Source: Thermoplasmata archaeon
Lineage (GTDB): Archaea; Thermoplasmatota; Thermoplasmata; Lutacidiplasmatales; UBA184
DNA: 64,000 bases
Direction: 5' to 3'
Assembly (NCBI GenBank): GCA_049585415.1
Contig: JBAUZT010000005.1
Location: 3,480-67,479 of the forward strand
Below the pieces are notes generated by a model that made no database searches, was not told where the DNA came from, and was given only the letters and a program-made list of their open reading frames with translations. The translations under genes were made by a program, and so were the position numbers. Shown piece after piece: positions 36,191 through 54,600 of this stretch (the first letter of the stretch is position 1; each line of letters opens with the position of its first letter).

Positions 36191-36248
36191 CGGTGATGAC
36201 GTCGCGCTTACAACGCGGAGATCGACGGTTCGAATCCGTCCCGGCCCA
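36176..36248 (+). tRNA. tRNA-Val (anticodon TAC)
   Basis: Manually folded. Acceptor GGGCCGG/CCGGCCC, D-arm GTC-TAGCGGTGAT-GAC, anticodon loop CTTACAA, T-arm GACGG-TTCGAAT-CCGTC, discriminator A. 73 nt. Confidence 0.85.
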
Positions 36249-36409
36249 CGGCCCGAACGTCGATGGCCAAGGGTTCGGTGCCCCTCGGCTCCGAGCCTCC
36301 GAACCTTAGTCACACGATCGTCGCGGTCGCATCGCTCTCACCAAAAATGACGGCGAGTTGAGGGGTCTTCAGAACGGATCGGGTCGCTATGTCTCCTTTC
36401 AGAATCCAG

Positions 36410-36417
36410 TATAAGTA
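36410..36417 (+). promoter_or_regulatory. TATA box (TATAAGTA) about 25 nt upstream of the surface-protein ATG; leaderless promoter
   Basis: AT-rich motif in an otherwise GC-rich intergenic region, at the spacing expected for an archaeal TATA box relative to a start codon that coincides with the transcription start. Confidence 0.5.
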
Positions 36418-36441
36418 TCGTCACAGCTATCGAGGAAACGG

Positions 36442-39400
36442 GTGGGATCGCCGGATTTGATCGCCCCCGAAGGGACGCGGGCCGGTGCTGCGAGCGGACC
36501 CGTTCCGCATCGCACGCGTCGACGTCCGCGCTCGAATCGGCGAACCGTCGCGGTGCTGGCGGTCATAGCGTTGGTGTTCGGTGGGATGGTTCTCAACTTC
36601 GGCGTCACAGCCCCGGCGCTGACCCGGCCACAGGGTCCTGAGAACACCCCGCTCCTGGGATGCGGTTCGGCTTCGATCGGTTGTGACAATGCCGATTCAG
36701 CGACCGTTGCCTCCGCGATAACCCCCGACCTCACGGTGACCTCCAGCAACACGACCAACTTTGCCGGGTCTCCCACGCCTTTCCAGGCAGCCCTTCCGTT
36801 CGGGTTCACGGCTACGGGTTACACATGGTGGTGGGGAGATGGAAGTGTCAGCACCACCTCGACGGGAACCACATCGCACACGTACTCCTCGGCCGGAGTA
36901 TACCTGGTGTATGCCCAGGCGACCGACTCCTCTGGCCTACTGCACGACAACCTTCGGGCGATCCTCCGTCACGTCGAAGTCTCTTCGGCGACCGGGGACG
37001 CTCTCGGAAACTACCCGGAAGTCGCCGGAGCGATCGTTGCGAACAGCTCTACGAACGTGAATGCGACAGCGACCATTCCAGCCGGAGGCGCGGTAACCGT
37101 AGAGAACTGGATCGCCTCGGGGCCGTCCAACCCGGACTGGTCGCTGGGAACGCCGGACTACTTTCTCTCGGCCAACGCCGGCCCATATGCTACCCCCTCT
37201 TCCTCCATCCTGAACTCTAGCGGAATCGATGGAGTTACGGTCTCCTTCTCTCCGACCACTCCCAACGGGAGCTACGCCCTGTCGTTCTCTGCTCCCAGTC
37301 TCGGCAAGGTGAACGGGACCAGCGCAACGGTTTGGGCGAACTTCACGTTCACGGTCTTCGTCTCGTCCGGGGCGGTGACCCCCCTCCCATCCATCCCCAC
37401 TTCCCCTCACCCGGGTTCGTTGGCGGTGTATTACCAGTCGACTTTCAGCACGTGGGATTCGCAACTGGTCTACGACTCCATCGATGGGGGAATACTACAG
37501 AACGTTGTACAGAGCCTGCTCTTCCGAAACGTTTCTCACGACGGCTCAAGCCCGCAAGACCTCGTCCCGGATCTCGCGACGTGCGTACCCGGCTCCGTTC
37601 AGTGCTTCGACCTCTATGGGAACTACTTGGAAGACGCTCAGGGAGACTATACGTTCGTACTGAACCCCAACGCGACCTTCTACAATCCGACGACCGGAGG
37701 TCACGAGACGGTGTACCCCAACGACGTAGCGTTCTCGATCACTCGGGACTGCCTCCTTTCGAATTTTCTTACGGGAACCCAGGTCTTCAGCGCAGGGTAC
37801 GACCTGTGCCAGTCTCTACTTCCGGGACCTTCCTCCTTGTCGAATCCATCAAACCAGAGCTGGGACGGCGGGGTTCACTATCCGTACAACAACACACCGG
37901 CGAACATCCTCTCCGCAATCGAGGTGAACAGTAGCTCCTTTTGTCCGCCTTCCAGCCCTATGCGAGACGGCATTCACGGTAACGGATGCGTCACCCTATT
38001 GACCTCTGGCTCCGGGTCCGAATGGCCGAACTTCCTCGATTTCGTTTCGACGGCATGGGGCTCGTCGGTCGTGAACTGTGACTTGGTCTCGGCGGCAGGA
38101 TACGGCTTGCCGGGATGGGAAAACGGAATGACTTGCCTCGGCGCTCCGCCGGGGTCTGCCGGTAATTTGAACGGTGTACCCCCCAACAACGCGTGGGATG
38201 CCTCGATCACGTATCTCGCGAACACGGCGTACGACTCTCCTCTTCAGTGGGCTCTCAACGGCAGCGGCCCGTACTATGTTTCCCAGGTGATTCAAGGAGG
38301 GTCTGGCCCGACAACGGTGACTCTCGAGGCGAACCCGTACTGGGGGGGCACAACCTGCGAAGGAGGTCGACTGGCCGGTTGCTTGCCACCCGGAGACTTG
38401 GGTGGCCCTCCCCCGACGTTCATTCCCAAGGTCATCATCTATGCGAATGTCTCATCGGCGGTCGGCCTCGCCGCAGTTCGCGCAGGAAGCGCCGACCTAG
38501 TGGACCTCAACGCCTCGGAGATCCCGGCCCTCGACAACGCGCTGGAGAGCGGCCAAATCCAGGCGGCCGTCGTCCCGGGGATTGGCGTCGAGCCGCTGGG
38601 GATGAACCTCAACTACTCCACCACCGAAGCCGCAATGATCCTGGGCGCTCCGTCCACGTTGCCGTCGGACCTTCTCCAGGACATCAACCTCCGTCAATTC
38701 CTGATCAACGCGTACCCTTGGCAGACAGCGGAGACCGACTCGTGCATCGTCGGCGGAATCCAGCTCTGCCTGCAGTACGCTGGAGCGTTGCCGGCCTACA
38801 TGACCGGTTTCATCCCCACGAACCTTAGTTGGCCGATGCCCAATCCAAGCTCCAACCCGAACGTCGTCGGTGGAGCCGCATGGTGGTGGGCGCTCGCGGA
38901 CTCCGACGGCATCGTGAACGCGGCCTGTTCGGCCTCCCTGCCGTGCACTTTTCCGGTGCCTTCCGAGCAAGGAAATCCGACCTTGAGCGGTCCCCTAGCG
39001 GCGTGGGCGGCGAACGTGAAGACCCTCTCGGGCGGTGCCATCGTCCCAGAGCCCGTTCTGGTGCCGTTCTATCCTACCATCTACCTGAACGATACCGCCC
39101 CGCCCGGTCAAAGTGGTTTCGCGACCCAGTCGGATGGTTGGGCCCCCGACTTCTTCGATCCGTCCAATTACCTCAATCCGTTCTACGAGCCGGACCTCTC
39201 TTGGGGCTACTCGAACTCCTTCGCACCGGGACTGCTGCAGGCGAAGTACGAGAGTGCTTGTGCGGGGCCCGCAGCGTACCCCCAGGTCACCGAGAGCTGC
39301 CAAGGCACCGCCTACCGGGAGCTGCTCAGCCTCGCGAACGCCTCCGCGACCTGTGCCCCGCCCAGCTGCACTCTGAGCAGCCGCGAGCTTCTCTACCACG

Positions 39401-40311
39401 AAGCCGACCAACTCACCTACGGTCTCAGCCTCTATCTGCCGGTCGAACAGACCGCGGACGTGATTGGCGTCGCCCCGTGGATCGAGCTCTCGTCCCTCGC
39501 GTACGATCCGCTTTCGGGCAGCTTCGGGCTCATCGGCCAACCCTTCTTCGACATTCGCTATGCTTCGGTCGTACCGCCGGTCTATCCGCTCGAGGTAGGC
39601 GCCCTCGGAGGGTTTACTCCGGTGGGCCAGGTCCTTTCCAGCCAAGGAAGTCAGATCTCGGCAAGCGTCGCAACTCCTACCATTGAGACCGGTGAGAGCC
39701 TCCTCGTTCTCGTGAGCGTGGCCGGGGGCACGGGTGTCTATTTCTATGCTTGGCAGGGACTCCCCACGGGTTGTACCTCGGTGAACACCGGGGCCCTCGT
39801 CTGTCGACCGAACGGCACCGGCTCTTTCACCGTGTCGGTAACGGTCACGGATTCGGCCGGCGATCGGGGGACGAGCCCCCCCGAGAACGTGGAGGTGGTC
39901 GAAGGTCCCACGATATCGCGCTTCACCGTCTCCCCGGCCGCCATTCAACTCGGTGAGTCCGCCGAATTCTCGCTCGCGGCTACCGGAGGCATCGGAGGAC
40001 TGCTCCTTTCGTACTCCGGATTGCCTCTCGGATGCGCTAGCGCGAATCGGTCGTCCTTGAGCTGCACACCAATGGCAGTGGGCACATTCACCGTCGTCGC
40101 GTTCGCGCGTGACTCCCTGGGCGTGGTGGCGATCGACAACACATCGCTAACGGTATCCTCTCCTGCTTCCGGCGCTATACCATCAAGCTCGAACAACCTC
40201 CTCTATCTCGCGATCGGGGTGAGCGTCGGCGGCATCGGAGGCGCCATCGGCTCGATCACGGTGGCATGGTGGCAATGGAAGCGGAAACCTCCTCCGAAGC
40301 CAGGGCCGTGA
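36442..40311 (+). CDS. Large cell-surface glycoprotein (S-layer-like) with N-terminal signal/anchor, PKD domain, He_PIG-type Ig-like repeats and C-terminal TM anchor
   Basis: PKD signature WWWGDGS…HTYSSAGVYLVYAQATDSSG; more than 30 N-x-S/T sequons; two C-terminal repeats (…GLPTGCTS…GSFTVSVTVTDSAGDRG / …GLPLGCAS…GTFTVVAFARDSLG); terminal TM helix LLYLAIGVSVGGIGGAIGSITVAWW followed by KRKPPPKPGP. GC visibly lower than flanks. Confidence 0.8.
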   Translation: MGSPDLIAPEGTRAGAASGPVPHRTRRRPRSNRRTVAVLAVIALVFGGMVLNFGVTAPALTRPQGPENTPLLGCGSASIGCDNADSATVASAITPDLTVTSSNTTNFAGSPTPFQAALPFGFTATGYTWWWGDGSVSTTSTGTTSHTYSSAGVYLVYAQATDSSGLLHDNLRAILRHVEVSSATGDALGNYPEVAGAIVANSSTNVNATATIPAGGAVTVENWIASGPSNPDWSLGTPDYFLSANAGPYATPSSSILNSSGIDGVTVSFSPTTPNGSYALSFSAPSLGKVNGTSATVWANFTFTVFVSSGAVTPLPSIPTSPHPGSLAVYYQSTFSTWDSQLVYDSIDGGILQNVVQSLLFRNVSHDGSSPQDLVPDLATCVPGSVQCFDLYGNYLEDAQGDYTFVLNPNATFYNPTTGGHETVYPNDVAFSITRDCLLSNFLTGTQVFSAGYDLCQSLLPGPSSLSNPSNQSWDGGVHYPYNNTPANILSAIEVNSSSFCPPSSPMRDGIHGNGCVTLLTSGSGSEWPNFLDFVSTAWGSSVVNCDLVSAAGYGLPGWENGMTCLGAPPGSAGNLNGVPPNNAWDASITYLANTAYDSPLQWALNGSGPYYVSQVIQGGSGPTTVTLEANPYWGGTTCEGGRLAGCLPPGDLGGPPPTFIPKVIIYANVSSAVGLAAVRAGSADLVDLNASEIPALDNALESGQIQAAVVPGIGVEPLGMNLNYSTTEAAMILGAPSTLPSDLLQDINLRQFLINAYPWQTAETDSCIVGGIQLCLQYAGALPAYMTGFIPTNLSWPMPNPSSNPNVVGGAAWWWALADSDGIVNAACSASLPCTFPVPSEQGNPTLSGPLAAWAANVKTLSGGAIVPEPVLVPFYPTIYLNDTAPPGQSGFATQSDGWAPDFFDPSNYLNPFYEPDLSWGYSNSFAPGLLQAKYESACAGPAAYPQVTESCQGTAYRELLSLANASATCAPPSCTLSSRELLYHEADQLTYGLSLYLPVEQTADVIGVAPWIELSSLAYDPLSGSFGLIGQPFFDIRYASVVPPVYPLEVGALGGFTPVGQVLSSQGSQISASVATPTIETGESLLVLVSVAGGTGVYFYAWQGLPTGCTSVNTGALVCRPNGTGSFTVSVTVTDSAGDRGTSPPENVEVVEGPTISRFTVSPAAIQLGESAEFSLAATGGIGGLLLSYSGLPLGCASANRSSLSCTPMAVGTFTVVAFARDSLGVVAIDNTSLTVSSPASGAIPSSSNNLLYLAIGVSVGGIGGAIGSITVAWWQWKRKPPPKPGP

Positions 40312-41052: not shown

Positions 41053-42120
41053 ATGAGCGAAGAGAACCTCCCGGAGGAACCGGCGTCGCGCCGGGCGCCC
41101 TCCCGACCCCGCCGGGCGCGGGAACCGACCCCGTCCGATACCCCCTTGCGAGCCACGAGCGACACCCGTCCCCCCCGTCGCCTACTTCGGCGCGGGGACG
41201 ATAACGCCTCTCGGGCTGCACCACCGTTCTCGGGCGTGCTCCTGGGTCGCCCTTCGGTAGCGACCGTGACCGTCGGCCCGCGAGAATCGTCCGAACATCT
41301 GTTCCGTCGGCTCCTCGGGGCGTACCTCGGCGGCGCCCGAGAGTTCATCGTGATCGAGCGACCCGAGGTGACGATCGGCACGCGCGAGGTCGTTCGCACG
41401 TTCTGCCGCCGCACGCGACAGCCCGAGGTGGTCTTCGAGGAGGGCGGGGTGATCCGGCTCCGCGACCTCGCGTACGAGACCCCGGTCCCGCTGCCCGAGC
41501 GCCTAACGCGGATGGGGCGGATCGTGCTCGCCTTTCACCGCGAGGCGGTCGAGAGCTGGTCGGAGCTGCCCCTCGGCGAGGACGACTACTGGGAGCGACG
41601 GGACGACGAGATCGACCGCGAGGCCTGGTACGTCCAGCGGCTCGCGGCGCTGCGTCTCCAGCTCGACCCGACCGGAGTGACGCTGCTCGGTCCCTGGACG
41701 ATCGCCCGCAGCCTCGAGCGGATCGCCGACCACGCCACGGTCATCGGCGAGACGGGCCGCCGGATCGTCGAACTGCCCCGGGGCGGCGCGGCGCTCACGT
41801 CCCTCCAGCAGTTCCACCACCAGGCGATGGACCATCTCGAGGGCGTGCTCAACGCGCGGGACGACGCGGCAGCGAACGACCTCCTCGACATGGGCGAGGC
41901 GCTGCTCGTCTCGGGCCGCGCGCTCTCCGACCGGCTCCTCCCCGCGGTCGGTGGGGGCACGATGCCTCCCGCGACCGCCGCCGCCGTGACACGGATCCTC
42001 GAGTCCATCGGCCGGACGGTCGCCTACGCGCAGGATATCGCGCAGGTCGTGCTCGACCGCGCGATCCCGGTGACGTTCTCGGAGTCTCCCGCGGACGCGG
42101 ACGAGCCGATCGCCTCGTGA
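41053..42120 (+). CDS. PhoU-domain protein (phosphate uptake regulator-like, two PhoU repeats)
   Basis: PhoU-like helical repeats including LERIADHATVIGE and ILESIGRTVAYAQDIAQ. The N-terminal roughly 60 aa are low-complexity and Arg/Pro-rich. Confidence 0.6.
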   Translation: MSEENLPEEPASRRAPSRPRRAREPTPSDTPLRATSDTRPPRRLLRRGDDNASRAAPPFSGVLLGRPSVATVTVGPRESSEHLFRRLLGAYLGGAREFIVIERPEVTIGTREVVRTFCRRTRQPEVVFEEGGVIRLRDLAYETPVPLPERLTRMGRIVLAFHREAVESWSELPLGEDDYWERRDDEIDREAWYVQRLAALRLQLDPTGVTLLGPWTIARSLERIADHATVIGETGRRIVELPRGGAALTSLQQFHHQAMDHLEGVLNARDDAAANDLLDMGEALLVSGRALSDRLLPAVGGGTMPPATAAAVTRILESIGRTVAYAQDIAQVVLDRAIPVTFSESPADADEPIAS

Positions 42121-42199: not shown

Positions 42200-42727
42200 A
42201 TGGCCGAACCCACTCCGAGCGCGCGCGTCGTGCTCTTCCGCCACGGTCCCGCGGAGCGCCGGGACCCGGCCCGCTGGCCGGACGACGCGCTGCGACCCTT
42301 GAGCCGTAAGGGCGTCCAACAGACCCGGCGGGCCGCTCGGGGACTCGCCCGTCAGGTCGAGCACGTGACCCGGGTCGCGTCGAGCCCCGCGGTGCGCGCC
42401 CGCCGGTCGGCCGAGATCCTCGGGGAGACCCTCGAGCCCCCGGTGCGGCCGCAGCTCTGGGCCGAGCTCGACCTCGGGACGACCGCGGCGGCGATCCTGC
42501 CGCGGCTGCGGCACGAGACCGGCGCCGGCCGCACGGTCGTGCTCGTCGGGCATGACCCGACCCTTTCCGAATTCCTCGGCCTCGCCCTCGCGGCCGAGAG
42601 CGTCGCGGTCGCGCGGCTCACGAAGGCGGGCGCCGCGTGCGTCGAGTTCCCGCGGTCCGTTCGACCGGGGTCGGGACGACTGGTCTGGCTGCTCACGCGG
42701 AGGCAGCTGGCCGTCGGGAGCGACTGA
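42200..42727 (+). CDS. sixA: Histidine-phosphatase-superfamily protein (SixA-like phosphohistidine phosphatase)
   Basis: VVLFRHGPAE (RHG catalytic motif) and VLVGHDP second His motif; 175 aa. Confidence 0.75.
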   Translation: MAEPTPSARVVLFRHGPAERRDPARWPDDALRPLSRKGVQQTRRAARGLARQVEHVTRVASSPAVRARRSAEILGETLEPPVRPQLWAELDLGTTAAAILPRLRHETGAGRTVVLVGHDPTLSEFLGLALAAESVAVARLTKAGAACVEFPRSVRPGSGRLVWLLTRRQLAVGSD

Positions 42728-43448
42728 CCGGCGGTCGAGCCGACAGGAGCGCGCGGCGCGGGGGAGCCGCGTAGAGCGGCGCGACCAGGCCGCGAACGTC
42801 CTCGTGGACTTTGTCCGGCATCCGGTTCGCGTCGACGCGGTGGAATCCGTACTCGGCGCCGACCCAGGCGAACTCCTTCGAGAGGCGGTCCTGGTAGGCG
42901 AAGAAGCTCTCGAAGAGGTCGCGGGAGAGCGAGAGGTCCATCCCCGACTCCCAGTAGTCGAGCGACCCGTACTTCGCGATCGCGCGGTGGAGCAGGATCT
43001 CGGGGCGTGCCTCGAGGAAGACCACCAGGTCCGGCTTCAAGGCGAACCCGTACAGCTGGCGGGCCCAGTCCCGCGACGCCCCCCGGACGACCGCGCGCGC
43101 CATGAGCGTGTAGATGTACCGGTCGGCGAGCACCGTGCTGCCGGCGGAGAGGGCGGGAACGATCTTGTTCTCGAGCTGGTCGGCGAAATCCACGGCGTAG
43201 AGCAGCGCCATCGTGGTCGTGCCGAGGGTGTGGCCCTGCTTCGCCTGGTCGATCTCTCCGGCGACCAGGTCGGAGCGACGGAGGCCGGTGTCGACGACCG
43301 CGTGGCCCTCCACCTCGAGCCACTCACGGAGGAGCGCCACCTCGGTCGTCCGGCCGGACCCGTCCGCGCCCTCGATGACGATCAGCTTCCCCGAGAGCGA
43401 ATGCTCGGGGAGCCCGGGGAGACGGGTGCCGTACGTCCTATCCGTCAT
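42693..43448 (-). CDS. Thymidylate-kinase-family protein A (P-loop variant GSGRTT)
   Basis: IVIEGADGSGRTT (Arg in place of the usual P-loop Lys), DRY motif LADRYIYT, LID-region arginines. Overlaps the upstream paralog by 11 nt. Confidence 0.8.
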   Translation of the reverse strand: MTDRTYGTRLPGLPEHSLSGKLIVIEGADGSGRTTEVALLREWLEVEGHAVVDTGLRRSDLVAGEIDQAKQGHTLGTTTMALLYAVDFADQLENKIVPALSAGSTVLADRYIYTLMARAVVRGASRDWARQLYGFALKPDLVVFLEARPEILLHRAIAKYGSLDYWESGMDLSLSRDLFESFFAYQDRLSKEFAWVGAEYGFHRVDANRMPDKVHEDVRGLVAPLYAAPPRRALLSARPPVSRSRRPAASA

Positions 43449-44139
43449 GCATCAGCCTCTCGGCCATGGGGAAGTTCTGGAGGATCGGCCGGACGAAGCC
43501 GCGCAGTTGTGCCTGGATCGACTCGACCGACCGGCTCGAGTCGATGACCGTGAACTCGTCCGTTCGGGCCATCCGCTCGTACTCCTGCTTCAGGCGCGTC
43601 TGGAACCGCTCGTAGCTGTCGTGCAGGTCGTCCGAGAGCCCGAGGTCCATCCCGGCCTCGTAGTAGTTGATCTTGAGACGCGAGGCGATCTTCCGCTGGA
43701 GCGTCACGGAGACCGGGACGCGGAAGTAGAAGACGCAGTCCGGTCGCGGGGCGAACGAGTAGATGTTCCGGACCCAGGCGGGGTCGCACCCCCGGGCCGC
43801 GTCCCGAACGAAGGCGGTGTAGGCGTAGCGGTCGCAGACGACCACGTACCCCGCGCGGAGCGGTGGGAGGATCTTCCGCTCGAACCGGTCGGCGAAGTCG
43901 GTAGCGTGGAGGAGCGAGAACGTCGTCGGGGTGAGGAGGTTCTTCTTCTTGCCGCGGCGGATCGTCGCCGACGTGAGCTCCGACGAGTTCCATTCGGTGA
44001 AAAAGACCCGATACCCTTGGGCCTGGAGCCACTTGCCGAGGAGCGCGGCCTGGGTCGATTTTCCGCTGCCGTCGAGCCCCTCGAAGACGAAGAGGCGTCC
44101 CGGGAACCCGTGGGTCGGGCTCGGCAGTTCAGGCATCAC
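43438..44139 (-). CDS. Thymidylate-kinase-family protein B (canonical P-loop GSGKST)
   Basis: FVFEGLDGSGKSTQA, DRY motif VCDRYAYT. Overlaps the ppx 3' end by 11 nt and the downstream paralog by 11 nt. Confidence 0.8.
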   Translation of the reverse strand: MMPELPSPTHGFPGRLFVFEGLDGSGKSTQAALLGKWLQAQGYRVFFTEWNSSELTSATIRRGKKKNLLTPTTFSLLHATDFADRFERKILPPLRAGYVVVCDRYAYTAFVRDAARGCDPAWVRNIYSFAPRPDCVFYFRVPVSVTLQRKIASRLKINYYEAGMDLGLSDDLHDSYERFQTRLKQEYERMARTDEFTVIDSSRSVESIQAQLRGFVRPILQNFPMAERLMHDG

Positions 44140-45691
44140 GGAAACGGACCTGCCGCTCGAACGTGCGCTCCATCGACCGGCGAACCCTATCCTCCCAGTG
44201 AGCGGGCAGGGTCGTAGCCGCCGGGGCGGAAAAGGCCACCGTGAGCGTTTTACCGCCGCCCCCGAGAGAGAAGCGAGGCCGCGCCGCGGAGGTCAGCTCG
44301 GCGATCTCGAGCACCGACCCGAGCCGACGGGCCGTTTCGAGGTCGGGGGCCCGGATGATCGGGAGGAACCCCTTCTTCCAGGCGGACGGGAGACCCTCGC
44401 CCTCGTGCATCCGCGCGGCCATCGAGGCGAGCAGCACTTCCCGCTGGTCGAGGCCCCAGATCGGGTAGTTCTGGATCAGGTAGGCGGAATGGTGGGCGTG
44501 TCGCCAGAGGTCGATGGAGGCGCCGCTGTCGTGCATCCACGCGGCCACCCGGAGGGCGAGCCCTTCGCTCCGTCCCCATTCGTACTCGGCCGCGAGCACG
44601 TCGAAGAGACCGAGGGCGGTATCCGCGACCTCGCGCCCGTGGTCGAGGTGGAACGAGAACGACTCCGCGGCCGCCCCCGCGGACCGTTCCGCGAGCTGCT
44701 CCGCCGGCACCGGCAGCTTGGCCCCGATCGCCTCGAGGGCGAGCCCTTCACGGATCCCCGTTCCGGCGACCACGATCCGGCCCGCGCCGGTGGCGCGGAT
44801 CAGCTCCCCGAGCACGACGATCCCCGCGACGACCACGTCCGCGCGGTCCGTGCCGATCCCGGGGATCGCGCGACGTTTCTCGGCCGGCATCTCGCCGAGG
44901 AGCTCGCCCAGCGCGTCGAGGTCGTGATCCCAGAGCGGGTAGCCGTGGACGCGCTCGATCGGATAGTCCCGGAACTCGATCGCGGCGCGCGCAAGGGACC
45001 GTAGGGTTCCTCCGACGCCGAAGACCCGGTACTTCCGGCCACCAAACGCGTCGAGGACCGAGCCCAGGGTGTCCCGGACGTGCTCCCGAAGCTCGTCGAT
45101 CTCCCGTCGTTTCGGGGGGTCGTGGTCGAGGAATCGCTGCGAGAGTCGCAGCACGCCGAGCGGGACGCTGACCGAGTTCCGCAGCTGACCCGCGCGGACC
45201 TCCGCGATCTGCATCGAACCCCCTCCGAGGTCGCAGACCAGGTCGTTCTCGAGCTCCCACGCTCCGGCGACCCCGAGGTACGCGTAGCGAGCCTCCTCCG
45301 CACCCGAAATGATCCGTAACAGGATGCCGGTCGAGCGCTCGACCTGGCGGACGAACTCGGCGCCGTTCGGCGCGTCCCGGACCGCGCTCGTCGCGACCGC
45401 GATCGTTCGGGAGAGCTCGAGGGAGCGGATCGAGAGCGCGAACCGCTCGACCGCGGCGATCCCTCGCTGGATCGCGGCGGCGCTCAAACGACCGTCCGGT
45501 CCGGTGCCGAGCCCGAGCCGGGGCGACTCCTTGGTCTCGTAGATCGCCCGTACGCTCCCCGACCCCGACGCCGCGAAGGCGACGAACCGCGCGGTGTTGG
45601 ACCCGACGTCGATCACCCCGATCGACCGACCCGGCCGGGGTCGCGTCGACTCGGTCGGCCGGTGGATTTCGACCGATCGGGAGCGGTCCAC
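44129..45691 (-). CDS. ppx: Exopolyphosphatase / guanosine pentaphosphate phosphohydrolase family (Ppx/GppA) with C-terminal HD-like domain
   Basis: ASKHA motifs IGVIDVGSNTARFV and DLGGGSMQIAEV; C-terminal helical domain with WMHDSG…HHSAY; 520 aa (true start may be internal). Confidence 0.85.
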   Translation of the reverse strand: MDRSRSVEIHRPTESTRPRPGRSIGVIDVGSNTARFVAFAASGSGSVRAIYETKESPRLGLGTGPDGRLSAAAIQRGIAAVERFALSIRSLELSRTIAVATSAVRDAPNGAEFVRQVERSTGILLRIISGAEEARYAYLGVAGAWELENDLVCDLGGGSMQIAEVRAGQLRNSVSVPLGVLRLSQRFLDHDPPKRREIDELREHVRDTLGSVLDAFGGRKYRVFGVGGTLRSLARAAIEFRDYPIERVHGYPLWDHDLDALGELLGEMPAEKRRAIPGIGTDRADVVVAGIVVLGELIRATGAGRIVVAGTGIREGLALEAIGAKLPVPAEQLAERSAGAAAESFSFHLDHGREVADTALGLFDVLAAEYEWGRSEGLALRVAAWMHDSGASIDLWRHAHHSAYLIQNYPIWGLDQREVLLASMAARMHEGEGLPSAWKKGFLPIIRAPDLETARRLGSVLEIAELTSAARPRFSLGGGGKTLTVAFSAPAATTLPAHWEDRVRRSMERTFERQVRFRDA

Positions 45692-45791
45692 GGCCCCCCA
45701 GACGGGGCGGCCCTAATAGAAGTGCGCGCGTGCGAGACCGCCCGAACCGAGGACTTACTAAGCTCGGGGGGTCCCGGACCCGGGAGAGCCG

Positions 45792-46694
45792 ATGGGGGTC
45801 GCGGCGGGCGGACGCACACGGCTCCGACCGTCGACCCTGGCCAACGAGCTCGACCGACTCCTCTCGGAGGTCGCCGGCTCCGTCGACGACGTGGTGGCCC
45901 ACTCCCATCCCTCCGCCGAGAGCCTCCACCAGCTCCACCGGGAGATGCGCCGTCTCCGGCACGCCCTCGGGATCTGGGAGCGGTTGCTCACGAGCCGCGA
46001 CCGGACGCTGGTCGCCCCGCTCGACCTCCGACTGAAGCGCCTCGCACGGTTGGTCGGTCGGGTCCGCGACCGGGACGTGATGATCGAGCTCATCGAGGGG
46101 GGGACGCTACCGCGCCCGTCCCGCCGGGACGCGTGGGCGATCGCGCGGTTGCGCGCGCGCCTTCGCGACGATGCCCGCACCGGGCGCGAGTTGCTCCGGG
46201 TCTACTTGCGGAGCGAGCGGGACGCGCACCTGTTCGAGGGGCTCCGGGAGAGCGTCGAGTTCGTCCCTCGCGCCGACGCCGGCCCCCAGCTGAGCGCGGT
46301 CCTCGAGCGAGAACAGACGCGGCGACGCTCGGACGTGCGGGCCGCCCACCGTCGGGCGCGCAAGCGACCGAGTTCGAATCGTCTCCACCAGCTGCGCATC
46401 CAGGTCCGTAGGCTCCGACACCTGGGGGAAGTGCGCCGCCGCCTCAATCCGGCACTTCGGGAACCGTTCCCGACGCCGGCGCGCCGTCTCCAAACGCGGC
46501 TCGGACGGTTGCACGACCTCGACCTCGTCCTCGCCGGCCTCGACGACGACCTCCGCTCGACCGAGTGGGGACGAGCGCTCAAGAAGGAGCGTCGCCGCGT
46601 CCGCTCCTCGGTCCGGCGTGCGCTCTATGCCTATCGGTGGCCGAAGCCCAGCGCGCCCCACGTCGCTCCCCCCGCCCGAGTGGCAGGCTCTTAG
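45792..46694 (+). CDS. CHAD-domain protein (conserved histidine alpha-helical domain; polyphosphate-associated)
   Basis: Arg/His-rich helical repeats LHQLHREMRRLRHAL and LHQLRIQVRRLRHLGE typical of CHAD. GGGAGAG Shine-Dalgarno-like sequence upstream. Divergent from ppx. Confidence 0.75.
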   Translation: MGVAAGGRTRLRPSTLANELDRLLSEVAGSVDDVVAHSHPSAESLHQLHREMRRLRHALGIWERLLTSRDRTLVAPLDLRLKRLARLVGRVRDRDVMIELIEGGTLPRPSRRDAWAIARLRARLRDDARTGRELLRVYLRSERDAHLFEGLRESVEFVPRADAGPQLSAVLEREQTRRRSDVRAAHRRARKRPSSNRLHQLRIQVRRLRHLGEVRRRLNPALREPFPTPARRLQTRLGRLHDLDLVLAGLDDDLRSTEWGRALKKERRRVRSSVRRALYAYRWPKPSAPHVAPPARVAGS

Positions 46695-46716
46695 GTGGAG
46701 CGAAGCTACCCGCGCC

Positions 46717-48228
46717 GTGCCGTTCACGGCCCGAAACGATCTTGCCGGGGGACTGCGCGTCGCGCTCGGGGAGTCCGGCGCGGTCGGCGCCACGGTGCGC
46801 CAGCTCGCGGCGCGACTGGACGACCGCCCCGAGAGGGTCGAACGGGCGCTGACCGGACTCGAAGAGCGCGGCGACGTGTTGCGGATGGGCCGGGGCCTCT
46901 ACGTCCTGCGTGATTTCGAGCGGCTCGAGGAGCGGACCGACTTCGTCGACCCGCGCGCGTTCGTGGAACGGTTCGTCCGCGAGAACGGACTCGAGCTCGG
47001 CCGCTACGGGGGACCGATCACGTTCCGGTCCAACGAGACGCTCCCCATCCACCGATGGTGGCCGTACGTCCAAGGGTACTCGGCGGAGTTCGTCCACGGA
47101 GTGCTGGTCGCCGCCGACCTTCCCCCGGACGCGACGGTGCTCGACCCGTTCGCCGGTAGCGGCACCACCCTCGTCGAAACGCGTCGGGTCGGCGCGCAAG
47201 CGCTCGGGAGCGAGCTGCTCGCTCCGGCCGTGCTCGCGGCCCGGGTGAAGACCCACTTCGAGCTGTCCCCCCGGAGACTTCGCTCGGGCGCTCGTCGGCT
47301 CCTCGACCGGGCGCGTCGGCGGCGGGACGGCCCCCTGCCGTTCCTCCGCGAAACGCGCCGCCAGTTCGACCGCGAGGCGCTCTCCCAGCTGAGCCGGTTG
47401 CGTGACGCACTCCCTACTGCGGACGGCCCGCTCGAGGACGCGCTACGGCTCGCGTTCGGGCGGATCCTGATCCCGTCGAGCCGGCTCCATCGGTCCCCCT
47501 GCCTCGGCTACGATCGTCGCCCGCACCCGGAGGGCCCGGAACCGTTCGAACGTTACCTCTCGGCGGTCGAAGAGATGGCGGACGACCTCGAGGGCCTTCG
47601 AAAGGAGCGGGCCTCCTGGGGACCGCGGGCTCGGGTCGTGGAAGGGGACGCTCGAACGGTGGCGTGGCCCCGGGGCTCGGTCGACCTCGCGGTGACGAGC
47701 CCGCCGTACGTCAACGGCATGGACTACGTCATGAACTACAAGGTCGACCTCGCCTGGCTCGGCTACGCGCATTCGTACGCGGACCTCGCACGGCTGCGCA
47801 GCGCCGAGGTCGCCTGCGACAACCTCCCGCGCACCGAGACGACCGCGTACCAGAGCGTCGTGCACACTCCGGATCCTTGGCTCGCGGAGATTCTCCCTCG
47901 GATCCGGGAAAACGTCGAGCGAAAAGGTTCCTACCGTAGGGCGGACGTGCACGCGGTCGTGCACCGGTACTTCGCGGACCTCGTTCCGGTGCTCACGCGC
48001 GTGCGGGAAGCGCTCGCCCCGGGGGGACGGTTCGTGCTCGTCGTCGGGGACTCGCTGCTCGCGGGCACGTACGTGCCCGGCGACCTCCTGACCGCGCGCA
48101 TCGGCGCGTCCCTCGGGTATCGGATCGTCTCCGTAGAGGTGGCGCGCGCCCGGCGCAGCGGACAGCGCCGATCGTTCGTCCTCCGAGAGTCGGTCGTGAC
48201 CCTCGAGCGGCCGCGCTCCGCGGGTTGA
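46717..48228 (+). CDS. DNA methyltransferase (amino-MTase; motif I FxGxG precedes motif IV SPPY) with N-terminal winged-helix domain
   Basis: VLDPFAGSGTTLVE (motif I) and DLAVTSPPYVNGMDY (motif IV); N-terminal RQLAARLDDRPERVERALTGLEERGDVLRMGRGLYVL resembles a wHTH. Start is uncertain: the ORF is open from 46618, but that would overlap the CHAD gene by 77 nt, so a GTG at 46717 is proposed. Confidence 0.75.
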   Translation: MPFTARNDLAGGLRVALGESGAVGATVRQLAARLDDRPERVERALTGLEERGDVLRMGRGLYVLRDFERLEERTDFVDPRAFVERFVRENGLELGRYGGPITFRSNETLPIHRWWPYVQGYSAEFVHGVLVAADLPPDATVLDPFAGSGTTLVETRRVGAQALGSELLAPAVLAARVKTHFELSPRRLRSGARRLLDRARRRRDGPLPFLRETRRQFDREALSQLSRLRDALPTADGPLEDALRLAFGRILIPSSRLHRSPCLGYDRRPHPEGPEPFERYLSAVEEMADDLEGLRKERASWGPRARVVEGDARTVAWPRGSVDLAVTSPPYVNGMDYVMNYKVDLAWLGYAHSYADLARLRSAEVACDNLPRTETTAYQSVVHTPDPWLAEILPRIRENVERKGSYRRADVHAVVHRYFADLVPVLTRVREALAPGGRFVLVVGDSLLAGTYVPGDLLTARIGASLGYRIVSVEVARARRSGQRRSFVLRESVVTLERPRSAG

Positions 48229-48275
48229 GCACCGAGCGGCAGATACTTCGCGCTCCGCGTGCGTACCTTCCCGGG

Positions 48276-48572
48276 ATGTACTGTCCGGTCTGCGGCCGCT
48301 CGATGACGGGCCCGACGAGCCCCACCGTGCCGTATCCGATGTTCCTCTGTGGCTACCACGGCGTCGTCTACGACCAGCGACGCGACACCTGGCACGGCCT
48401 TCCGCCGGTCGAATCGAAACTCTGCTGTCCGATCTGCGGGAGCTCGATGGAGTTCGAGCCGAAGGACTCCCCGGCGCGGATCTTCTTCTGCTACCAGTGT
48501 GGCACGACCTTTGACAAGGACCGCTCGACGTGGTACGGCCTCGCCTTCCACCAGGGGCCCGCGTCCCGGTAA
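48276..48572 (+). CDS. Hypothetical protein made of two tandem zinc-ribbon modules
   Basis: Internal duplication: MYCPVCGRSM…MFLCGYHGVVYDQRRDTWHGLP and LCCPICGSSM…IFFCYQCGTTFDKDRSTWYGLA. Start at MYCPV (48276), 45 nt after the methyltransferase stop. Confidence 0.55.
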   Translation: MYCPVCGRSMTGPTSPTVPYPMFLCGYHGVVYDQRRDTWHGLPPVESKLCCPICGSSMEFEPKDSPARIFFCYQCGTTFDKDRSTWYGLAFHQGPASR

Positions 48573-49404: not shown

Positions 49405-50409
49405 TCAGAGATAGCTCGCGTGCGCGTGGATGACCGCCCGCTCGGCGGTCGCCCACGCCTCGGGGATCTGGTTCCAGCCGTTCCGCTGGTCGCCGACGCA
49501 GTAGAGTCCGGGGATCGGGGCGCCGTCCGTCGCGCGGAGCGCGCGACAATCCTCGTCCGTCACGACGTAGCCGTCCGCGTCGAACCGGCAGCCGAGCGCG
49601 GTGGAGAATTCGTGGTGCATGTCGTACCAGCCGAGGGCGCTGAACCCGCGGTCGTAGCTGCGGTGACTACCGTCCGCGAACTTCACCCCGAATCGCTGCT
49701 CGCGGATCTCGTCGAACCCCACGACCTCGAGGTCGGTGTGCCCGATCCCGTGCTCCTGGAGCTCCTTCGTGAGGGTCGCGCGCTCCTCCTCGGGGGCGCC
49801 CGAGAGCAACGGATGCCCGAGCGTGAGCATCTCGACCGACGTCGGTCGGAAGTGGAGGACGTCGAGCGCGGTCCGCGCCGCGAACGGGTCGTGGCCGAGG
49901 ACTGCGACCGATTTCCCGGTGAGCTCGTGACCGTCGCACAGGATGCAGAAATCGACGAGCGCCTGGTTCGCCCACGGGAAGATCGTGTCGATCTTGCCCC
50001 CGACCTCGGGGATCCGGTCGACGACGCCTTGCGCGAGGACGAGCGCTCGACCCCGGGCGACGTGCGTCTGCTTCAGCCAGTCGAACGTGACGGAGTAACC
50101 GGTCTCGGTGCGCTCGACCGCGACCGCGCGCGCCGGGGTGAAGTAGCCGACCGCCTCCGAGCTCCGCACCGCCGCGACCTGCGCGTCGAGGAGCTTGTGC
50201 CCCGAGATCCCCGCCGGAAAGCCGGGGATGTTGTCCATCTTCGGCGCGTAGTACGACCGGGAGTACTTCGGCCCGCGATCGATGATCGCCGCGGAGTATC
50301 CGAGGAGGGCCGCCTTGTATCCGGCCTGGAGCCCGGCGTGTCCTCCACCGACGACGACGAAATCGTACGACGCTCGCAGGCGCGGTAGCCCCGGCACTTC
50401 CGAGCCCAC
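49405..50409 (-). CDS. Thioredoxin-reductase-like FAD/NAD(P)-dependent disulfide oxidoreductase
   Basis: FAD motif FVVVGGGHAGLQAG, redox CxxC CILCDGH, second dinucleotide motif VAVLGHDPFA. Confidence 0.8.
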   Translation of the reverse strand: MGSEVPGLPRLRASYDFVVVGGGHAGLQAGYKAALLGYSAAIIDRGPKYSRSYYAPKMDNIPGFPAGISGHKLLDAQVAAVRSSEAVGYFTPARAVAVERTETGYSVTFDWLKQTHVARGRALVLAQGVVDRIPEVGGKIDTIFPWANQALVDFCILCDGHELTGKSVAVLGHDPFAARTALDVLHFRPTSVEMLTLGHPLLSGAPEEERATLTKELQEHGIGHTDLEVVGFDEIREQRFGVKFADGSHRSYDRGFSALGWYDMHHEFSTALGCRFDADGYVVTDEDCRALRATDGAPIPGLYCVGDQRNGWNQIPEAWATAERAVIHAHASYL

Positions 50410-50468
50410 TCGGCGGGGGAATTTCAGCCCTCCTTCGTCCGCGCGGCGCGTCGCGCATCGAAAAATCC

Positions 50469-51686
50469 GTGGCGCGTGCGCTCGGACGACGGCAAATGTT
50501 AAGGACGCACCGCCTCCTCCTTCCCTTCGGGTTCCTGACGGCTGTGCCGGCCCGCGCCGCGAAGAGCGCGCTCGGGGGGACGCTCTTTCTCGAGGACGGA
50601 ACTCGTTTCGACGGCGCCGGGCTCGGCGCCGAGGGTCGGCGGGTCGGGGAGGTCGTCTTCACGACCGGAATGGTCGGGTATCCCGAATCGCTCACCGACC
50701 CGTCGTTCCGCGGGCAGATCCTCACGTTCACCTATCCCCTGCTCGGGAACTACGGCGTTCCGAGGAACGGCCGGGACGCGGACGGTCTCCCGGCGCTCGA
50801 GAGCGCCGAGGTCCAGCCCCGCGGGGTCATCGTGCGCGGCACGACCACCCCGAACCACTGGGAGAGCGAGCGCGCGCTCGACGACTGGTTATCGGCCGAA
50901 CGCGTCCCCGGGGTCCAGGGCGTCGATACCCGGCGGCTCACGGAGCATCTTCGCTCGAAGGGCGTCGTTCGGGGGGTGGTCGACGTCGGGTCGGCGGACG
51001 ACCGACCCACCGACGACGAGCTCCGCCGGGCGATCCGCGCCGCGCCGCAGTATGCGGAAGAGCAGTTCATGGACGAGGTGGCGCCCCGCAAGCCGACCCT
51101 CCTCGTCCGACGCGGGGGCGCCGTCGTCGCGGTGCTCGACTGCGGCATCAAGACGAGCATCCTCCGAAACCTCCTCGTGCGCGGCGTTTCGGTGCTGCGC
51201 CTGCCGTACGACCACGAGGTCCCGACGAAGTGGGAGGGCCGCCGCGTCGCCGGACTCCTGGTCGGGAACGGTCCGGGAGATCCCGCCGAGCTCGCGGCGA
51301 CGATCGAAGAGCTCGGCCGACCGTCGAACCGTGCCCTCCCGACGCTCGGGATCTGCCTCGGCCAGCAGCTGATCGCGCTCTCGCGTGGCGCGACGACCTT
51401 CAAACTGAAGTACGGCCACCGGGGCCAGAACAAGACGATCTGCTTCGCGGACGGACGCGCGCTGATCGTCAGCGAGAACCACGGCTACGCGGTCGACCCC
51501 GCGTCGATGAAGGAGAGCGGGCTCGAGGTCTGGGCGACGAACCCCGACGACGGCACGCTCGAAGGAGTGCGCGACGGTCCCGGGCGCGTCCTCGCGCTCC
51601 AGGGACACCCCGAGGGCCACCCGGGGCCGCAGGAGGCCGGGTTCGTCTTCGACCGGTTCGTGGGGAAGGTGAAGCGGCGCGCATGA
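50469..51686 (+). CDS. carA: Carbamoyl-phosphate synthase small (glutaminase) subunit
   Basis: N-terminal LFLEDGTRFDGAGLGAEGRRVGEVVFTTGMVGYPESLTDPS; GATase catalytic Cys ICLGQQL and His HGYAV. True start may be a few codons downstream of 50469. Confidence 0.92.
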   Translation: MARALGRRQMLRTHRLLLPFGFLTAVPARAAKSALGGTLFLEDGTRFDGAGLGAEGRRVGEVVFTTGMVGYPESLTDPSFRGQILTFTYPLLGNYGVPRNGRDADGLPALESAEVQPRGVIVRGTTTPNHWESERALDDWLSAERVPGVQGVDTRRLTEHLRSKGVVRGVVDVGSADDRPTDDELRRAIRAAPQYAEEQFMDEVAPRKPTLLVRRGGAVVAVLDCGIKTSILRNLLVRGVSVLRLPYDHEVPTKWEGRRVAGLLVGNGPGDPAELAATIEELGRPSNRALPTLGICLGQQLIALSRGATTFKLKYGHRGQNKTICFADGRALIVSENHGYAVDPASMKESGLEVWATNPDDGTLEGVRDGPGRVLALQGHPEGHPGPQEAGFVFDRFVGKVKRRA

Positions 51687-54600
51687 CCGTCTCGCTCCCG
51701 TCGAAGGTGATGCTCCTCGGCAGCGGCGCCCTCAAGATCGGCGAAGCCGGGGAGTTCGACTACTCGGGGAGCCAATGCTTGAAGGCGCTCTCGGAAGAGG
51801 GCGTCTACGCGATCGTCGTCAACCCGAACATCGCGACCCTGCAGACCGACCCTCCCGAGTGCGGTCGGGTCTACTTCCAGCCCCTCGTCCCCGAGTTCGT
51901 CGCCCCGATCCTCGAGGCGGAGCGCCCGGAGGGGATCCTCCTCTCGTTCGGCGGCCAGACCGCGCTCAACTGCGGCGTCCAGCTCTCGGATTCCGGGGCG
52001 CTCAAGCGGTCCGGCACCCGCGTGCTCGGCACGCCCCTGCTCGGGATCAAGGCGACCGAGGACCGCGCGAAGTTCGTCCGCATCATGGCCCGAGCGCGGG
52101 TGCCGACCCTGCCGAGCCGCGCGGTGTACAGCTACGAGGAGGCGGTGGAAGCGGCGACGACGCTCGGCTACCCCGTGATGGTCCGGGTCGCCTACACCCT
52201 CGGGGGAAAGGGCGGCGGCGTCGCGCGGGACGCGGAGGAGCTCCGCGAGGTCGCCGCCCGCGGCCTCCGCGCGAGTCCCGTCGGCCAGATCCTCCTCGAG
52301 CGGTACGTCGGCACGTTCAAGCAGCTCGAGTACGAGGTCGTCCGCGACGCGAAGGCGAACACGCTCACCGTCTGCAACATGGAGAACGTCCTCAACATGC
52401 GCGTCCATACCGGGGACAACATCGTCGTCGCGCCGAGCCAGACGCTCACCGACCACGAGTACCAGATGCTGCGACAGGCGGCGCTCCGCGCCGCGGACGC
52501 GGTCGGGATCGTCGGCGAGTGCAACATCCAGTTCTGTCTCGACCCGGTGAGCGAGGAGTACTACGCGATCGAGATCAACGCGCGCCTCTCGCGTTCGAGC
52601 GCGCTCGCGAGCAAGGCGACGGGCTACCCGCTCGCCTACGTCGCGGCGAAGCTCGCGCTGGGGTATACCCTCCCCGAACTCAAGAACCGCGTCACGGGCG
52701 TGACGACCGCGTGCTTCGAGCCGGCGCTCGACTACGTCGTCGTGAAGCTCCCCCGCTGGGACCTCGACAAGTTCGAGCGCGCCGACCGTCGGCTCGGTCC
52801 CGCGATGAAGTCGGTCGGCGAGGTGATGGGGATCGGCGCCTCCTTCCCCGAGGCGATCTCGAAGGCCGTCCGGATGGGCGACCCCCGCGCGGACCTACTG
52901 CCGCCCGCGGAGATCCGGGACCGCGAAGCGATCCTCGCCGACCTCGCCCAGCCGACCCCGGAGATCCTCCACCGGGTCCTCGAGGCCCTGCGCGCGGGCA
53001 TCGACACCGAGACGATCGCGCAGCGGTCGTGGATCGACCGGTGGTTCGTCGACTGCCTCGGCGAGATCGACGTGGCGCACCGGGCCCTCGAAGCGGTCGA
53101 GGGGCGGAACGTTTCCCCGGCGCTGATGCGCCGCGCGAAGGAGCTCGGGCTCTCCGACCGCGCGATCGGGCGCGCCGCGCGGCTCGACGAGGAGGAGGTC
53201 CGGCGTCGCCGCCTCGCCGACGGGATCCGCCCGCGGGTGCGGATGATCGACACGCTCGCGGGCGAGTGGCCCGCGAAGACGAACTACCTCTACCTCACCT
53301 ACCGGGCCGACGCGGACGACGTACGGCCGATGCCCAAGGGCTCGGTCCTCGTCGTCGGGGCCGGGCCCTACCGCATCGGCTCGAGCGTCGAGTTCGACTG
53401 GTCGACGATGAACCTCGTCGACGGGCTGAAGGCGGAGGGGGTGCCGGGCGTCTCCGTCCTGAACTCGAACCCCGAGACGGTCTCCACCGACTACGACCGC
53501 TCCGACCGGCTCTACTTCGAGGAGATCACGCTCGAGCGGGTGCGCGACCTGGTCGATTTCGAGTCGTTCACGGGCGTCGTCACGTGCGTCGGCAGCCAGC
53601 TCGCGCAAAATCTCACGCCCCTCCTCCAGATGTGCGGGATCCCCATCCTCGGGACGGCCTCGAAGTCGATCGACACCGCGGAGGACCGCGCCCAGTTCGC
53701 GCGCCTCTTGGAGAAGCTCAAGATCCCGCAACCGGCCTGGCGCGCCTTCACGACGGTCGACGAGGCGGGGGCCTTCGCGGACGAGGTCGGCTACCCCGTG
53801 CTCGTCCGTCCGTCCTACGTCCTGAGCGGACAGGCGATGCGGGTCATCTCGGGCCGCGCCGACCTCGCCCGGTTCCTCTCCGAGGCGGCGCGGGTCTCCC
53901 CGCAGCACCCGGTCGTCCTCACGAAGTTCGTCGAAGGGGCCGACGAGGTCGAGCTCGACGGGATCTCCGACGGCCACCGGGTCCTCGTCGGCGGGATCTT
54001 GGAGCACGTCGAACGGGCCGGGGTCCACTCGGGGGATGCGATCTTCTGCCTACCGCCACGCCATACCTCCACCGAGGTCCAGTCGAAGCTCCTCGAGGCG
54101 GCGGGCCGCCTCGCGCGCACGCTCGAGATCCGGGGCCCCTTCAACGTTCAGTTCCTGGTCAAGGACGAGGCGTACCAGATCATCGAGCTCAACCTCCGCG
54201 CGAGCCGTTCGCTCCCGTTCCTCGCGAAGGCGACCGGGGTCCCGCTGCTCCGGGAGGCCGCGCGGGCGATGCTCGGGAAGCCGATCTCTCGCGAGGGGGT
54301 CGCTCCGCTCCCGCCGGGTCGATGGGGCGTGAAGGTTCCCCAGTTCTCGTTCCTCCAACTTACCGGCTCGGACCCGCTCCTCGGCGTCGAGATGCAGTCG
54401 ACCGGCGAGGTTGCCTGCTTCGGACCGACGTTCTCGGACGCCCTCGTGAAGGCGCTCGTCGCCACCGGGGTTCGTCTGGTCCCGCGTCGCGGTACCGCGT
54501 TCCTTTCGGTCGGGGGTCCTGCGCTCAAGGAACAGCTCCTGCCCGTGGCGCAGCATCTCCGCACCCTGGGCCTCGGGGTCTCGGCGACCGAGGACACCGG

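Follow-up and report, generated by a model that had tools for sequence, protein, structure and literature searches.

The closest described system to the locus considered here is the family-3 polyphosphate kinase (PPK3) of Hofmann et al. (J Biol Chem 2026; PMC12995831; preprint 10.1101/2024.08.28.610084). In this enzyme, SaPPK3, Saci_2019 (cPPK3, catalytic) and Saci_2020 (rPPK3, regulatory and inactive alone) form an alpha2-beta2 polyphosphate kinase, which is reversible, is biased ~50-fold toward polyphosphate (polyP) + ADP -> ATP, and prefers ADP, with some activity with GDP. Neither subunit has dTMP kinase activity; the real dTMP kinase is Saci_0893, encoded at another locus. The rPPK3 subunit is described as lacking both the DRX arginine and the basic cleft. 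As published, the family is found in Sulfolobaceae, Nitrososphaeraceae and a few scattered bacteria, for which horizontal spread was proposed, and its usual neighbors are PPX, SixA, CHAD and Pst genes (all from Hofmann et al., 2026); Thermoplasmata are not mentioned in the main text of the paper or of its preprint. We describe here a three-gene locus, ppx-B-A, in a 64-kb stretch of DNA (64,000 nt; "the window") from a Thermoplasmata archaeon. It is probably a PPK3-type polyphosphate operon, with B as the catalytic subunit, A as a non-equivalent partner, and PPX degrading polyP. An initial annotation of the stretch had pointed to a report of a two-subunit, thymidylate kinase (Tmk)-like family-3 polyphosphate kinase encoded beside ppx in Sulfolobales; the study of Saci_2019 and Saci_2020 is that report.

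A predicted PPK3 operon

The three genes lie in a chain on the minus strand (42693-45691), an arrangement first proposed from the sequence alone and now borne out by coordinates of the open reading frames (ORFs), Pfam matches and coding signature:

44129..45691, minus strand: ppx, Ppx/GppA-family exopolyphosphatase, first gene of the operon, 520 aa
44129..44139, minus strand: ppx/B overlap, GTGATGCCTGA, 11 nt or 8 nt, set by the start codon
43438..44139, minus strand: protein B, Tmk-like, predicted cPPK3-type catalytic subunit, 233 aa; alternative start ATG 44136
43438..43448, minus strand: B/A overlap, ATGACGGATAG, 11 nt
42693..43448, minus strand: protein A, Tmk-like, predicted rPPK3-type partner subunit, 251 aa

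Of the two 11-nt overlaps originally reported, that between B and A stands as described; the length of the ppx/B overlap depends on the start codon of B, with 11 nt for GTG 44139 and 8 nt for ATG 44136, and relatives show both forms. The window is ~70% GC, which gives rise to many spurious ORFs, and GC content at third and second codon positions (GC3/GC2) was used as a coding test. The coding signature is strong in all three genes (GC3 0.88-0.92 vs GC2 0.45-0.52). Long plus-strand ORFs over the operon (42552..43547, 43213..44217 and 43931..45004) fail this test, and are high-GC antisense artefacts.

Protein B is the predicted ortholog of the catalytic subunit cPPK3. It matches PF02223 (Pfam, E 4e-28), has the P-loop EGLDGSGKST and the DRY motif VCDRYAYT, and is 49% identical to Saci_2019 (E 1e-72). 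Its best PDB match is 2plr/5h70, a cPPK3 homolog from Sulfurisphaera tokodaii (E 1.8e-59), with genuine Tmks at ~1e-16. Every motif common to Sulfolobaceae cPPK3s (GSGKS[TS], TEWNSS, KKKxLLTP, HATDFADR, DRYxxT, and YYEAGMD) is present in B, in the forms GSGKST, TEWNSS, KKKNLLTP, HATDFADR, DRY, and EAGMD. The cPPK3-type features tested on B were an intact Walker-A Lys, the DRX Arg, and positively charged cleft residues; all are present. At the 22 positions conserved as basic in the c clade (Lys or Arg in at least 85% of cPPK3 sequences), B is basic at 22 (pI 9.27), and canonical Tmks at just 3.

Judged by its sequence, protein A is an ortholog of rPPK3. It also matches PF02223 (E 1e-19), has 2plr as its best PDB match as well (E 5e-35), and shares the derived motif Y..D.ADQ.EN with Saci_2020. 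For both A and B, the margin of the PDB match to the cPPK3 homolog over those to true Tmks is 20-40 orders of magnitude. In A the P-loop is EGADGSGRTT, with an Arg at the Walker-A position, and the DRY motif is LADRYIYT; the GSGRTT and GSGKST runs and the DRY motifs noted initially for the two proteins can thus be read directly in their translations. At ten of the c-clade basic positions A has a non-basic residue (D, Q, G, Q, N, S, E, Y, S, A), and its pI is 6.61. The r clade as a whole is basic at only 6 of the 22, a loss that matches what is said of the polyP cleft in the PPK3 paper (Hofmann et al., 2026). The earlier view of A and B as paralogous, but not equivalent, therefore holds: they are c-type (B) and r-type (A) by phylogeny, motifs and basic residues.

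Trees were built by neighbor-joining from simple distances, with 200 bootstraps, without and with the Saci sequences. A falls in an rPPK3 clade that also holds bacterial second subunits and those of Sulfolobaceae, Saci_2020 among them (194/200 without, 187/200 with the Saci sequences), and the canonical Tmks form a separate clade (195-196/200). B groups with c-type proteins, including Saci_2019; an exclusive c clade is weakly supported (57-59/200). This clade structure implies that the c/r duplication is older than the spread among Thermoplasmata, Sulfolobaceae and bacteria.

A scan of one genome per GTDB species, with flanks of 10 kb or less inspected, found the module in at least 30 loci labeled Thermoplasmata, as well as in one "bacterium" record. 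The layout CHAD(-)/PPX-B-A(+)/SixA(-)/PhoU(-), overlaps included, is found on essentially all sufficiently long Thermoplasmata contigs; two deep-branching Thermoplasmata and the Sulfolobaceae have equivalent components in the order SixA-PPX-c-r. The ppx-B-A arrangement is not a chance one, because identical order and overlaps recur in at least 30 Thermoplasmata species-level genomes and in Sulfolobaceae. An 11-nt B/A overlap (6653/6663) is also present in most Thermoplasmata loci, and is likely to couple translation of the two proteins. Proteins in which c and r are naturally fused in one chain, with c first, also occur (P0121, of 460 aa, P0122, P0136, L040, and L041); together with the conserved gene overlaps, these support a physical coupling of A and B. 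The proposal of a heteromeric polyphosphate kinase module is thus supported, in the sense of a predicted ortholog of the Saci module, by sequence, phylogeny, motif pattern and synteny, and A and B are very likely the two subunits of such a kinase.

The product of ppx matches PF02541 (Ppx-GppA, E 2e-54) and PF21447 (domain III), shows ASKHA-type motifs in its translation (DVGSNT, DLGGGS, GVGGT), and is 27% identical to Saci_2018 (E 3e-32). Against TIGR03706 it scores 269 bits, under the 307-bit cutoff.

Upstream of ppx, the intergenic region it shares with a divergent CHAD gene is 70% GC and has two AT-rich elements, one on each side:

45714..45721, minus strand: TATA-box-like element TTCTATTA, centered ~26 nt upstream of the ppx start codon
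45754..45761, plus strand: second AT-rich element CTTACTAA, ~34 nt upstream of the CHAD start

The first is the sole AT-rich element on the ppx side. The position of this AT-rich octamer is kept in 13 Thermoplasmata upstream regions that are otherwise unalignable, and its spacing fits an archaeal TATA box with a leaderless mRNA, suggesting TTCTATTA as the predicted promoter of a leaderless ppx-B-A transcript. The counterpart of the CHAD-facing element, TTAGTAAG or TTGTAAG, recurs in four related loci (L008, L011, L012, L018), and CTTACTAA might be a divergent promoter for CHAD. An Rfam scan of the window found two tRNAs only, and no RNA element at the ppx-B-A locus.

These features suggest the following scheme. 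The TATA-like element would drive a leaderless ppx-B-A message, with translation probably coupled by the gene overlaps. B would have a dTMP-kinase fold in which the dTMP pocket is replaced by a basic cleft for polyP, and would transfer phosphate reversibly between polyP and ADP/ATP. If B behaves like the SaPPK3 enzyme, it would mainly regenerate ATP from polyP as the ATP/ADP ratio falls, with polyP made only at high ATP/ADP. By the same analogy, A would assemble with B, probably as alpha2-beta2, and stimulate it. PPX would degrade polyP, and the CHAD, SixA-like and PhoU-like neighbors would link the locus to polyP granules and phosphate regulation. The analysis itself shows homology and orthology, patterns of motifs, conserved synteny, and c+r fusions that occur in nature; enzymatic activity, complex formation, the promoter, and the inactivity of A itself are features that we infer.

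The partner subunit and rival explanations

Several observations weigh against a PPK3 operon of this kind. The clade placement comes from a distance-based neighbor-joining tree only. In raw BLAST comparisons A has 34% identity with Saci_2019 and slightly less, 31%, with Saci_2020, which is fast-evolving. A retains the DRX Arg, whose replacement is the published explanation for rPPK3 inactivity, and its P-loop is also unlike that of Saci_2020. With TIGR00041, the NCBIfam dTMP-kinase equivalog model, B reaches 102.6 and A 83.3 (cutoff 83.25), so that standard annotation calls both of them Tmk. Genomes with PPK3 would be expected to encode a canonical dTMP kinase as well, and mostly to lack PPK1/PPK2. 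A profile search of the 64-kb window found no third Tmk-like ORF, and hence no separate canonical tmk there; PP_kinase (PPK1) and PPK2 Pfam domains were likewise not found among the scanned genes of the window, the sole extent checked.

The DRX Arg and the P-loop bear mainly on how A is to be understood. Saci_2020 has a Walker-A Lys (GIMSSGKTT) and DGY, where A has a Walker-A Arg and DRY. Among Thermoplasmata homologs of A, GSGR is found in 120/120 and DR[YF] in 119/120 of the matches listed; the bacterial partner subunits also have a GxGR P-loop, and DR[YF] in 5/5. The Sulfolobaceae rPPK3s (n = 43) have Arg at this P-loop position in 28 and Lys in 15, and in 42 of the 43 D[G/S]Y replaces the DRX Arg (the remaining one gave no pattern match). 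GSGR as a universal rPPK3 hallmark, suggested by Acidianus-type loci, is ruled out by GIMSSGKTT in Saci_2020 and by the 15 Sulfolobaceae sequences with Lys. The A P-loop does have the Arg for which it was first singled out as unusual, but outside the S. acidocaldarius group GSGR is the usual state of rPPK3 subunits. Replacement of the DRX Arg appears to be a trait of Sulfolobaceae and not one that defines the family. Retention of this Arg in A lowers confidence in the inactivity of A, and not in A as an rPPK3 ortholog; as the published rationale for rPPK3 inactivity does not apply to A, its role has to be inferred, and could include ligand sensing.

A also differs from the Sulfolobaceae subunits at its C-terminus (window 42693-42780), an Arg/Pro-rich tail of ~28 aa ending ...PPRRALLSARPPVSRSRRPAASA. 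Thermoplasmata homologs keep both the SR.RR.AAS[AG] ending and the basic nature of the tail (on average 6.6 Lys/Arg among the final 30 aa); the Sulfolobaceae rPPK3s, at 205-212 aa, lack it. A convergent SixA-like gene overlaps the region that codes for the tail by 35 nt.

The strongest of the rival explanations keeps the PPK3 module, but has the Thermoplasmata/bacterial subtype of A bind a nucleotide or phosphate ligand in an Arg-rich pocket, as an allosteric sensor of energy charge or for a second phosphotransfer step. We regard this as possible, if doubtful. Eight residues, R33 (P-loop), R57, R58, R110 (DRY), R118, R122, R155 (LID), and E167, are near-invariant in the r subunits compared (41 from Thermoplasmata, 2 deep-branching, 5 bacterial); the Sulfolobaceae subunits have Q/M at 57/58, G/S at 110, W/Y at 118, and S at 167. 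R57 and R58 form part of a GLRRS run at the former nucleoside monophosphate site, and at the position of R118 the cPPK3 sequences have an invariant, PPK3-specific Arg that canonical Tmks lack. In P-loop NTPases, replacement of the Walker-A Lys by Arg usually leaves nucleotide binding intact while crippling phosphotransfer; this is compatible with a sensor, and P-loop kinase activity would not be expected of A. Other points against this possibility are that most of the proposed polyP-binding basic cleft is lost in A, that the Arg conservation could reflect interface or stability constraints, and that the sole assayed rPPK3 is inactive (Hofmann et al., 2026).

A related and equally tentative suggestion is that the Thermoplasmata/bacterial partner is a distinct, probably ancestral rPPK3 subtype, a ligand-binding regulator that senses ATP/ADP or a polyP end and gates the catalytic subunit; the Walker-A, DRX and LID arginines, with the two extra invariant arginines of GLRRS, could be the sensing residues. 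If so, the Sulfolobaceae enzyme would be a degenerate exception, and what has been published on why rPPK3 is inactive would not generalize.

As a second alternative, the A/B pair might use an acceptor or donor other than ADP/ATP, for example as a polyP-dependent GDP or NMP kinase, or in nucleotide salvage, with PPX a GppA-type nucleotide phosphatase. Ppx/GppA enzymes can hydrolyse pppGpp, the PPX score is below the cutoff of a model for exopolyphosphatases only (269 vs 307 bits), and SaPPK3 itself has some GDP activity. However, SaPPK3 prefers ADP, B has kept every cPPK3-specific basic residue, and the CHAD, SixA, and PhoU neighbors are associated with polyP and phosphate, making this reading improbable.

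The third alternative, also raised in outline in the initial annotation, is that the organism's genuine dTMP kinase is one of the pair, most plausibly B, with a pseudokinase as its partner and an association with ppx that is incidental or regulatory. The TIGR00041 scores, the lack of another Tmk-like ORF in the window, and the database names (all "dTMP kinase"; the S. tokodaii protein STK_15430 was deposited as "probable thymidylate kinase") speak for it. The dTMP-site residues were compared in 33 canonical Tmks (from the same scan), 41 cPPK3-clade and 38 rPPK3-clade sequences:

[R/K]-E-P motif: Pro in 33/33 canonical Tmks; E-W-N in the cPPK3 clade; G-L-R in the rPPK3 clade
Thymine-stacking Phe: Phe in 30/33 canonical Tmks; His in 40/41 of the cPPK3 clade; Tyr in 38/38 of the rPPK3 clade
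Arg of the "DR" pair: Arg in 33/33 canonical Tmks; Phe in 41/41 of the cPPK3 clade; Phe in 34 and Leu in 4 of the rPPK3 clade

At these sites B has EWN, His and Phe, and A has GLR, Tyr, and Phe. Both retain the P-loop, the D of DRY and the LID Arg, and the c and r clades have in common the PPK3-specific DRYxxT and E[AS]GMD. Several points make this alternative very unlikely: residues of the dTMP site found in 30-33 of 33 canonical Tmks are changed in A and B alike; both proteins are within the PPK3 clade and well apart from canonical Tmks; Saci_2019 and Saci_2020 have no dTMP kinase activity while Saci_0893 elsewhere has it (Hofmann et al., 2026); and the window is only a small fraction of the genome. 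Neither A nor B is predicted to be a dTMP kinase.

Neighboring genes and the rest of the window

The association of PPK3 with PPX, SixA, and CHAD was tested at this locus, and all are present: ppx is the upstream gene of the operon, a SixA-like gene and a CHAD gene lie to either side, and the locus has a PhoU-domain gene as well.

45792..46694, plus strand: CHAD-domain protein (polyP-granule-associated family), PF05235 E 9e-24; divergent from ppx
42200..42727, plus strand: SixA-like histidine phosphatase, His_Phos_1 E 4e-10; convergent with A, 35-nt 3' overlap
41053..42120, plus strand: PhoU-domain protein (phosphate-regulation family), PF01895 E 3e-9

CHAD is kept beside ppx in Thermoplasmata loci; the SixA-like protein is 29% identical to Saci_2017 (E 9e-16) and its position is also conserved in these loci, with PhoU adjoining it in most of those of sufficient length. 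Next to CHAD are a gene for an N6/N4 DNA methyltransferase-like protein with a helix-turn-helix (46618-48228, plus strand; kept in 20 related loci), and then one for a small zinc-ribbon protein (48225-48572, plus strand; kept in 11). As called, the methyltransferase ORF shares 77 nt with the 3' end of CHAD; its start has probably been overcalled.

On the other side of the operon, a gene for a 1289-aa PKD/solute-binding-like surface protein (36176-40311) lies in a GC dip (0.62-0.64 vs 0.70) directly after tRNA-Val. In relatives such as L011, L015 and L018, an archaeosine-TGT gene is within ~250 bp of PhoU; this short gap suggests that the window holds ~4.8 kb of extra, lineage-specific DNA beside the tRNA. 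A DDE_3/helix-turn-helix transposase gene (24045-25103, minus strand) in another local GC dip (0.655) is probably an insertion sequence. Two further ORFs are over-extended: a first-start ORF of 1568 aa (50282-54988, plus strand) with carbamoyl-phosphate synthase large-subunit domains from ~residue 474, and a DHH/DHHA1 phosphoesterase ORF (60878-62650, plus strand) that overlaps an S15 gene.

The assignment to a high-GC Thermoplasmatota-like genome, made at first from the letters alone, agrees with the archaeal markers in the window (TFS/RpoM, Rpo11, an archaeosine-TGT-type protein, Trm5/Tyw2, archaeal-type S15, and TrmB regulators) and with the closest homologs of A (76-92% identity), all of which are proteins of "Thermoplasmata archaeon" metagenome-assembled genomes (MAGs), annotated as dTMP kinase.

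Distribution and comparison with described systems

The locus adds a further archaeal phylum to a family first published in 2026, and is not a new kind of system. In that publication PPK3 was the polyphosphate kinase that had been missing in Sulfolobaceae and Nitrososphaeraceae, with a few bacterial cases, and the Thermoplasmata lineage was not named. Across a widespread high-GC Thermoplasmata lineage, whose MAG names point to soil, peat and permafrost samples, the module is stable and keeps its synteny, and a polyP-based energy and phosphate buffer can be proposed for this uncultured archaeal group. Its PPK3 proteins are at present mis-annotated as dTMP kinases, and the NCBIfam equivalog model passes them. 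Two expectations of the initial annotation need some adjustment. Occurrence in Thermoplasmata does extend the system, but the family had already been reported beyond Crenarchaeota, in some bacteria; and while a PPK3 assignment is supported for the "missing" polyP-synthesis enzyme, synthesis is half the story, given the strong preference of SaPPK3 for polyP-driven ATP formation. The partner subunit, judged by its motifs, is of a subtype that differs informatively from the studied Saci_2020. Saci_2020 is atypical of the regulatory subunit family, making R33, R57/R58, R110 and R118 residues of interest for activation of catalysis by the partner.

The "bacterium" record mentioned above (L020, DAIDCO010000074.1) has the full Thermoplasmata layout, and its c and r proteins nest in Thermoplasmata clades; it is probably a mislabeled MAG. 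Adjacent Tmk-like pairs were also seen in Peribacteria, Gracilibacteria, and Altarchaeum (L042-L047), with both members nearer to B than to A and both with GSGK; in the candidate phyla radiation (CPR) pairs among these, the second member is without the LID/EAGMD region. They may be c/r-like pairs of independent origin, or more divergent ones.

With proteins clustered at 50%, B has matches at E <= 1e-30 in 373 clusters. Some cPPK3-type domains are found within much larger proteins (770-2575 aa) that have the full signature (GSGKS, T-WNSS, AKK..LTP, DR[YW], YYEAGLD, and an acidic LID insertion). One, from the protist Ancoracysta twista (P0155, EukProt), also has an SPX phosphate-sensing domain and a DUF2252/APH-like region; P0164 and P0192 have a major facilitator superfamily (MFS) transporter and DUF2252; and P0187, P0169, and P0220 have inorganic-pyrophosphatase-like InPase domains, with ART-PolyVal as well in P0169. 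These fusions may point to PPK3-like enzymes in eukaryotes. The combination of SPX with Tmk-like polyP kinases is not mentioned in the PPK3 paper or in the literature searched.

Alignment with Saci_2019, Saci_2020, and PF02223, proposed at the outset as a check, places B and A with the c and r subunits of the SaPPK3 locus (Saci_2018 PPX, Saci_2019 c, Saci_2020 r, Saci_2017 SixA), both being PF02223 members. The two loci have in common the PPX-c-r order, overlapping genes, both paralog clades, a c subunit with every signature motif, an r subunit without the basic cleft, and SixA and an adjacent or downstream CHAD-type gene. They differ in that PPX here is 520 aa with domain III (vs 411 aa), that SixA and CHAD are on the opposite strand, and that a PhoU-domain gene is added. 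Unlike Saci_2020, A has the Walker-A Arg (Lys in Saci_2020), the DRX Arg (Gly in Saci_2020), R57/R58/R118/E167, and the ~28-aa Arg/Pro-rich tail.

The closest structure to both A and B is that of STK_15430 from S. tokodaii (PDB 2plr, 4nzy, 4rzx, 5h70), crystallized under its thymidylate kinase name and 46-47% identical to B. It is a catalytic-type subunit only; no structures of an r subunit or of the complex have been solved. Canonical dTMP kinases (COG0125/PF02223/TIGR00041) have the fold, P-loop, DRY, and LID arginine in common with A and B, but form a separate clade; A and B differ from them in their changed dTMP-site residues, and in having the PPK3-specific DRYxxT and E[AS]GMD and extra basic residues.

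The predicted bacterial PPK3 pairs (Myxococcota, Desulfobacterota-type, NPL-UPA2, and Sumerlaeota MAGs) have the same r subtype, with a GxGR P-loop and DRY, and are ~50% identical to A and B, consistent with the horizontal spread proposed by Hofmann et al. (2026); their neighborhood layout differs, with CHAD or PPX often downstream or absent within 6-kb flanks. A more distant parallel, drawn in the same paper, is with the two-domain class II PPK2 enzymes (e.g., P. aeruginosa PA3455), in which an active P-loop kinase unit is joined to a degenerate paralogous unit for oligomerization, although these belong to another P-loop kinase family, are fused in one polypeptide, and use AMP as acceptor.

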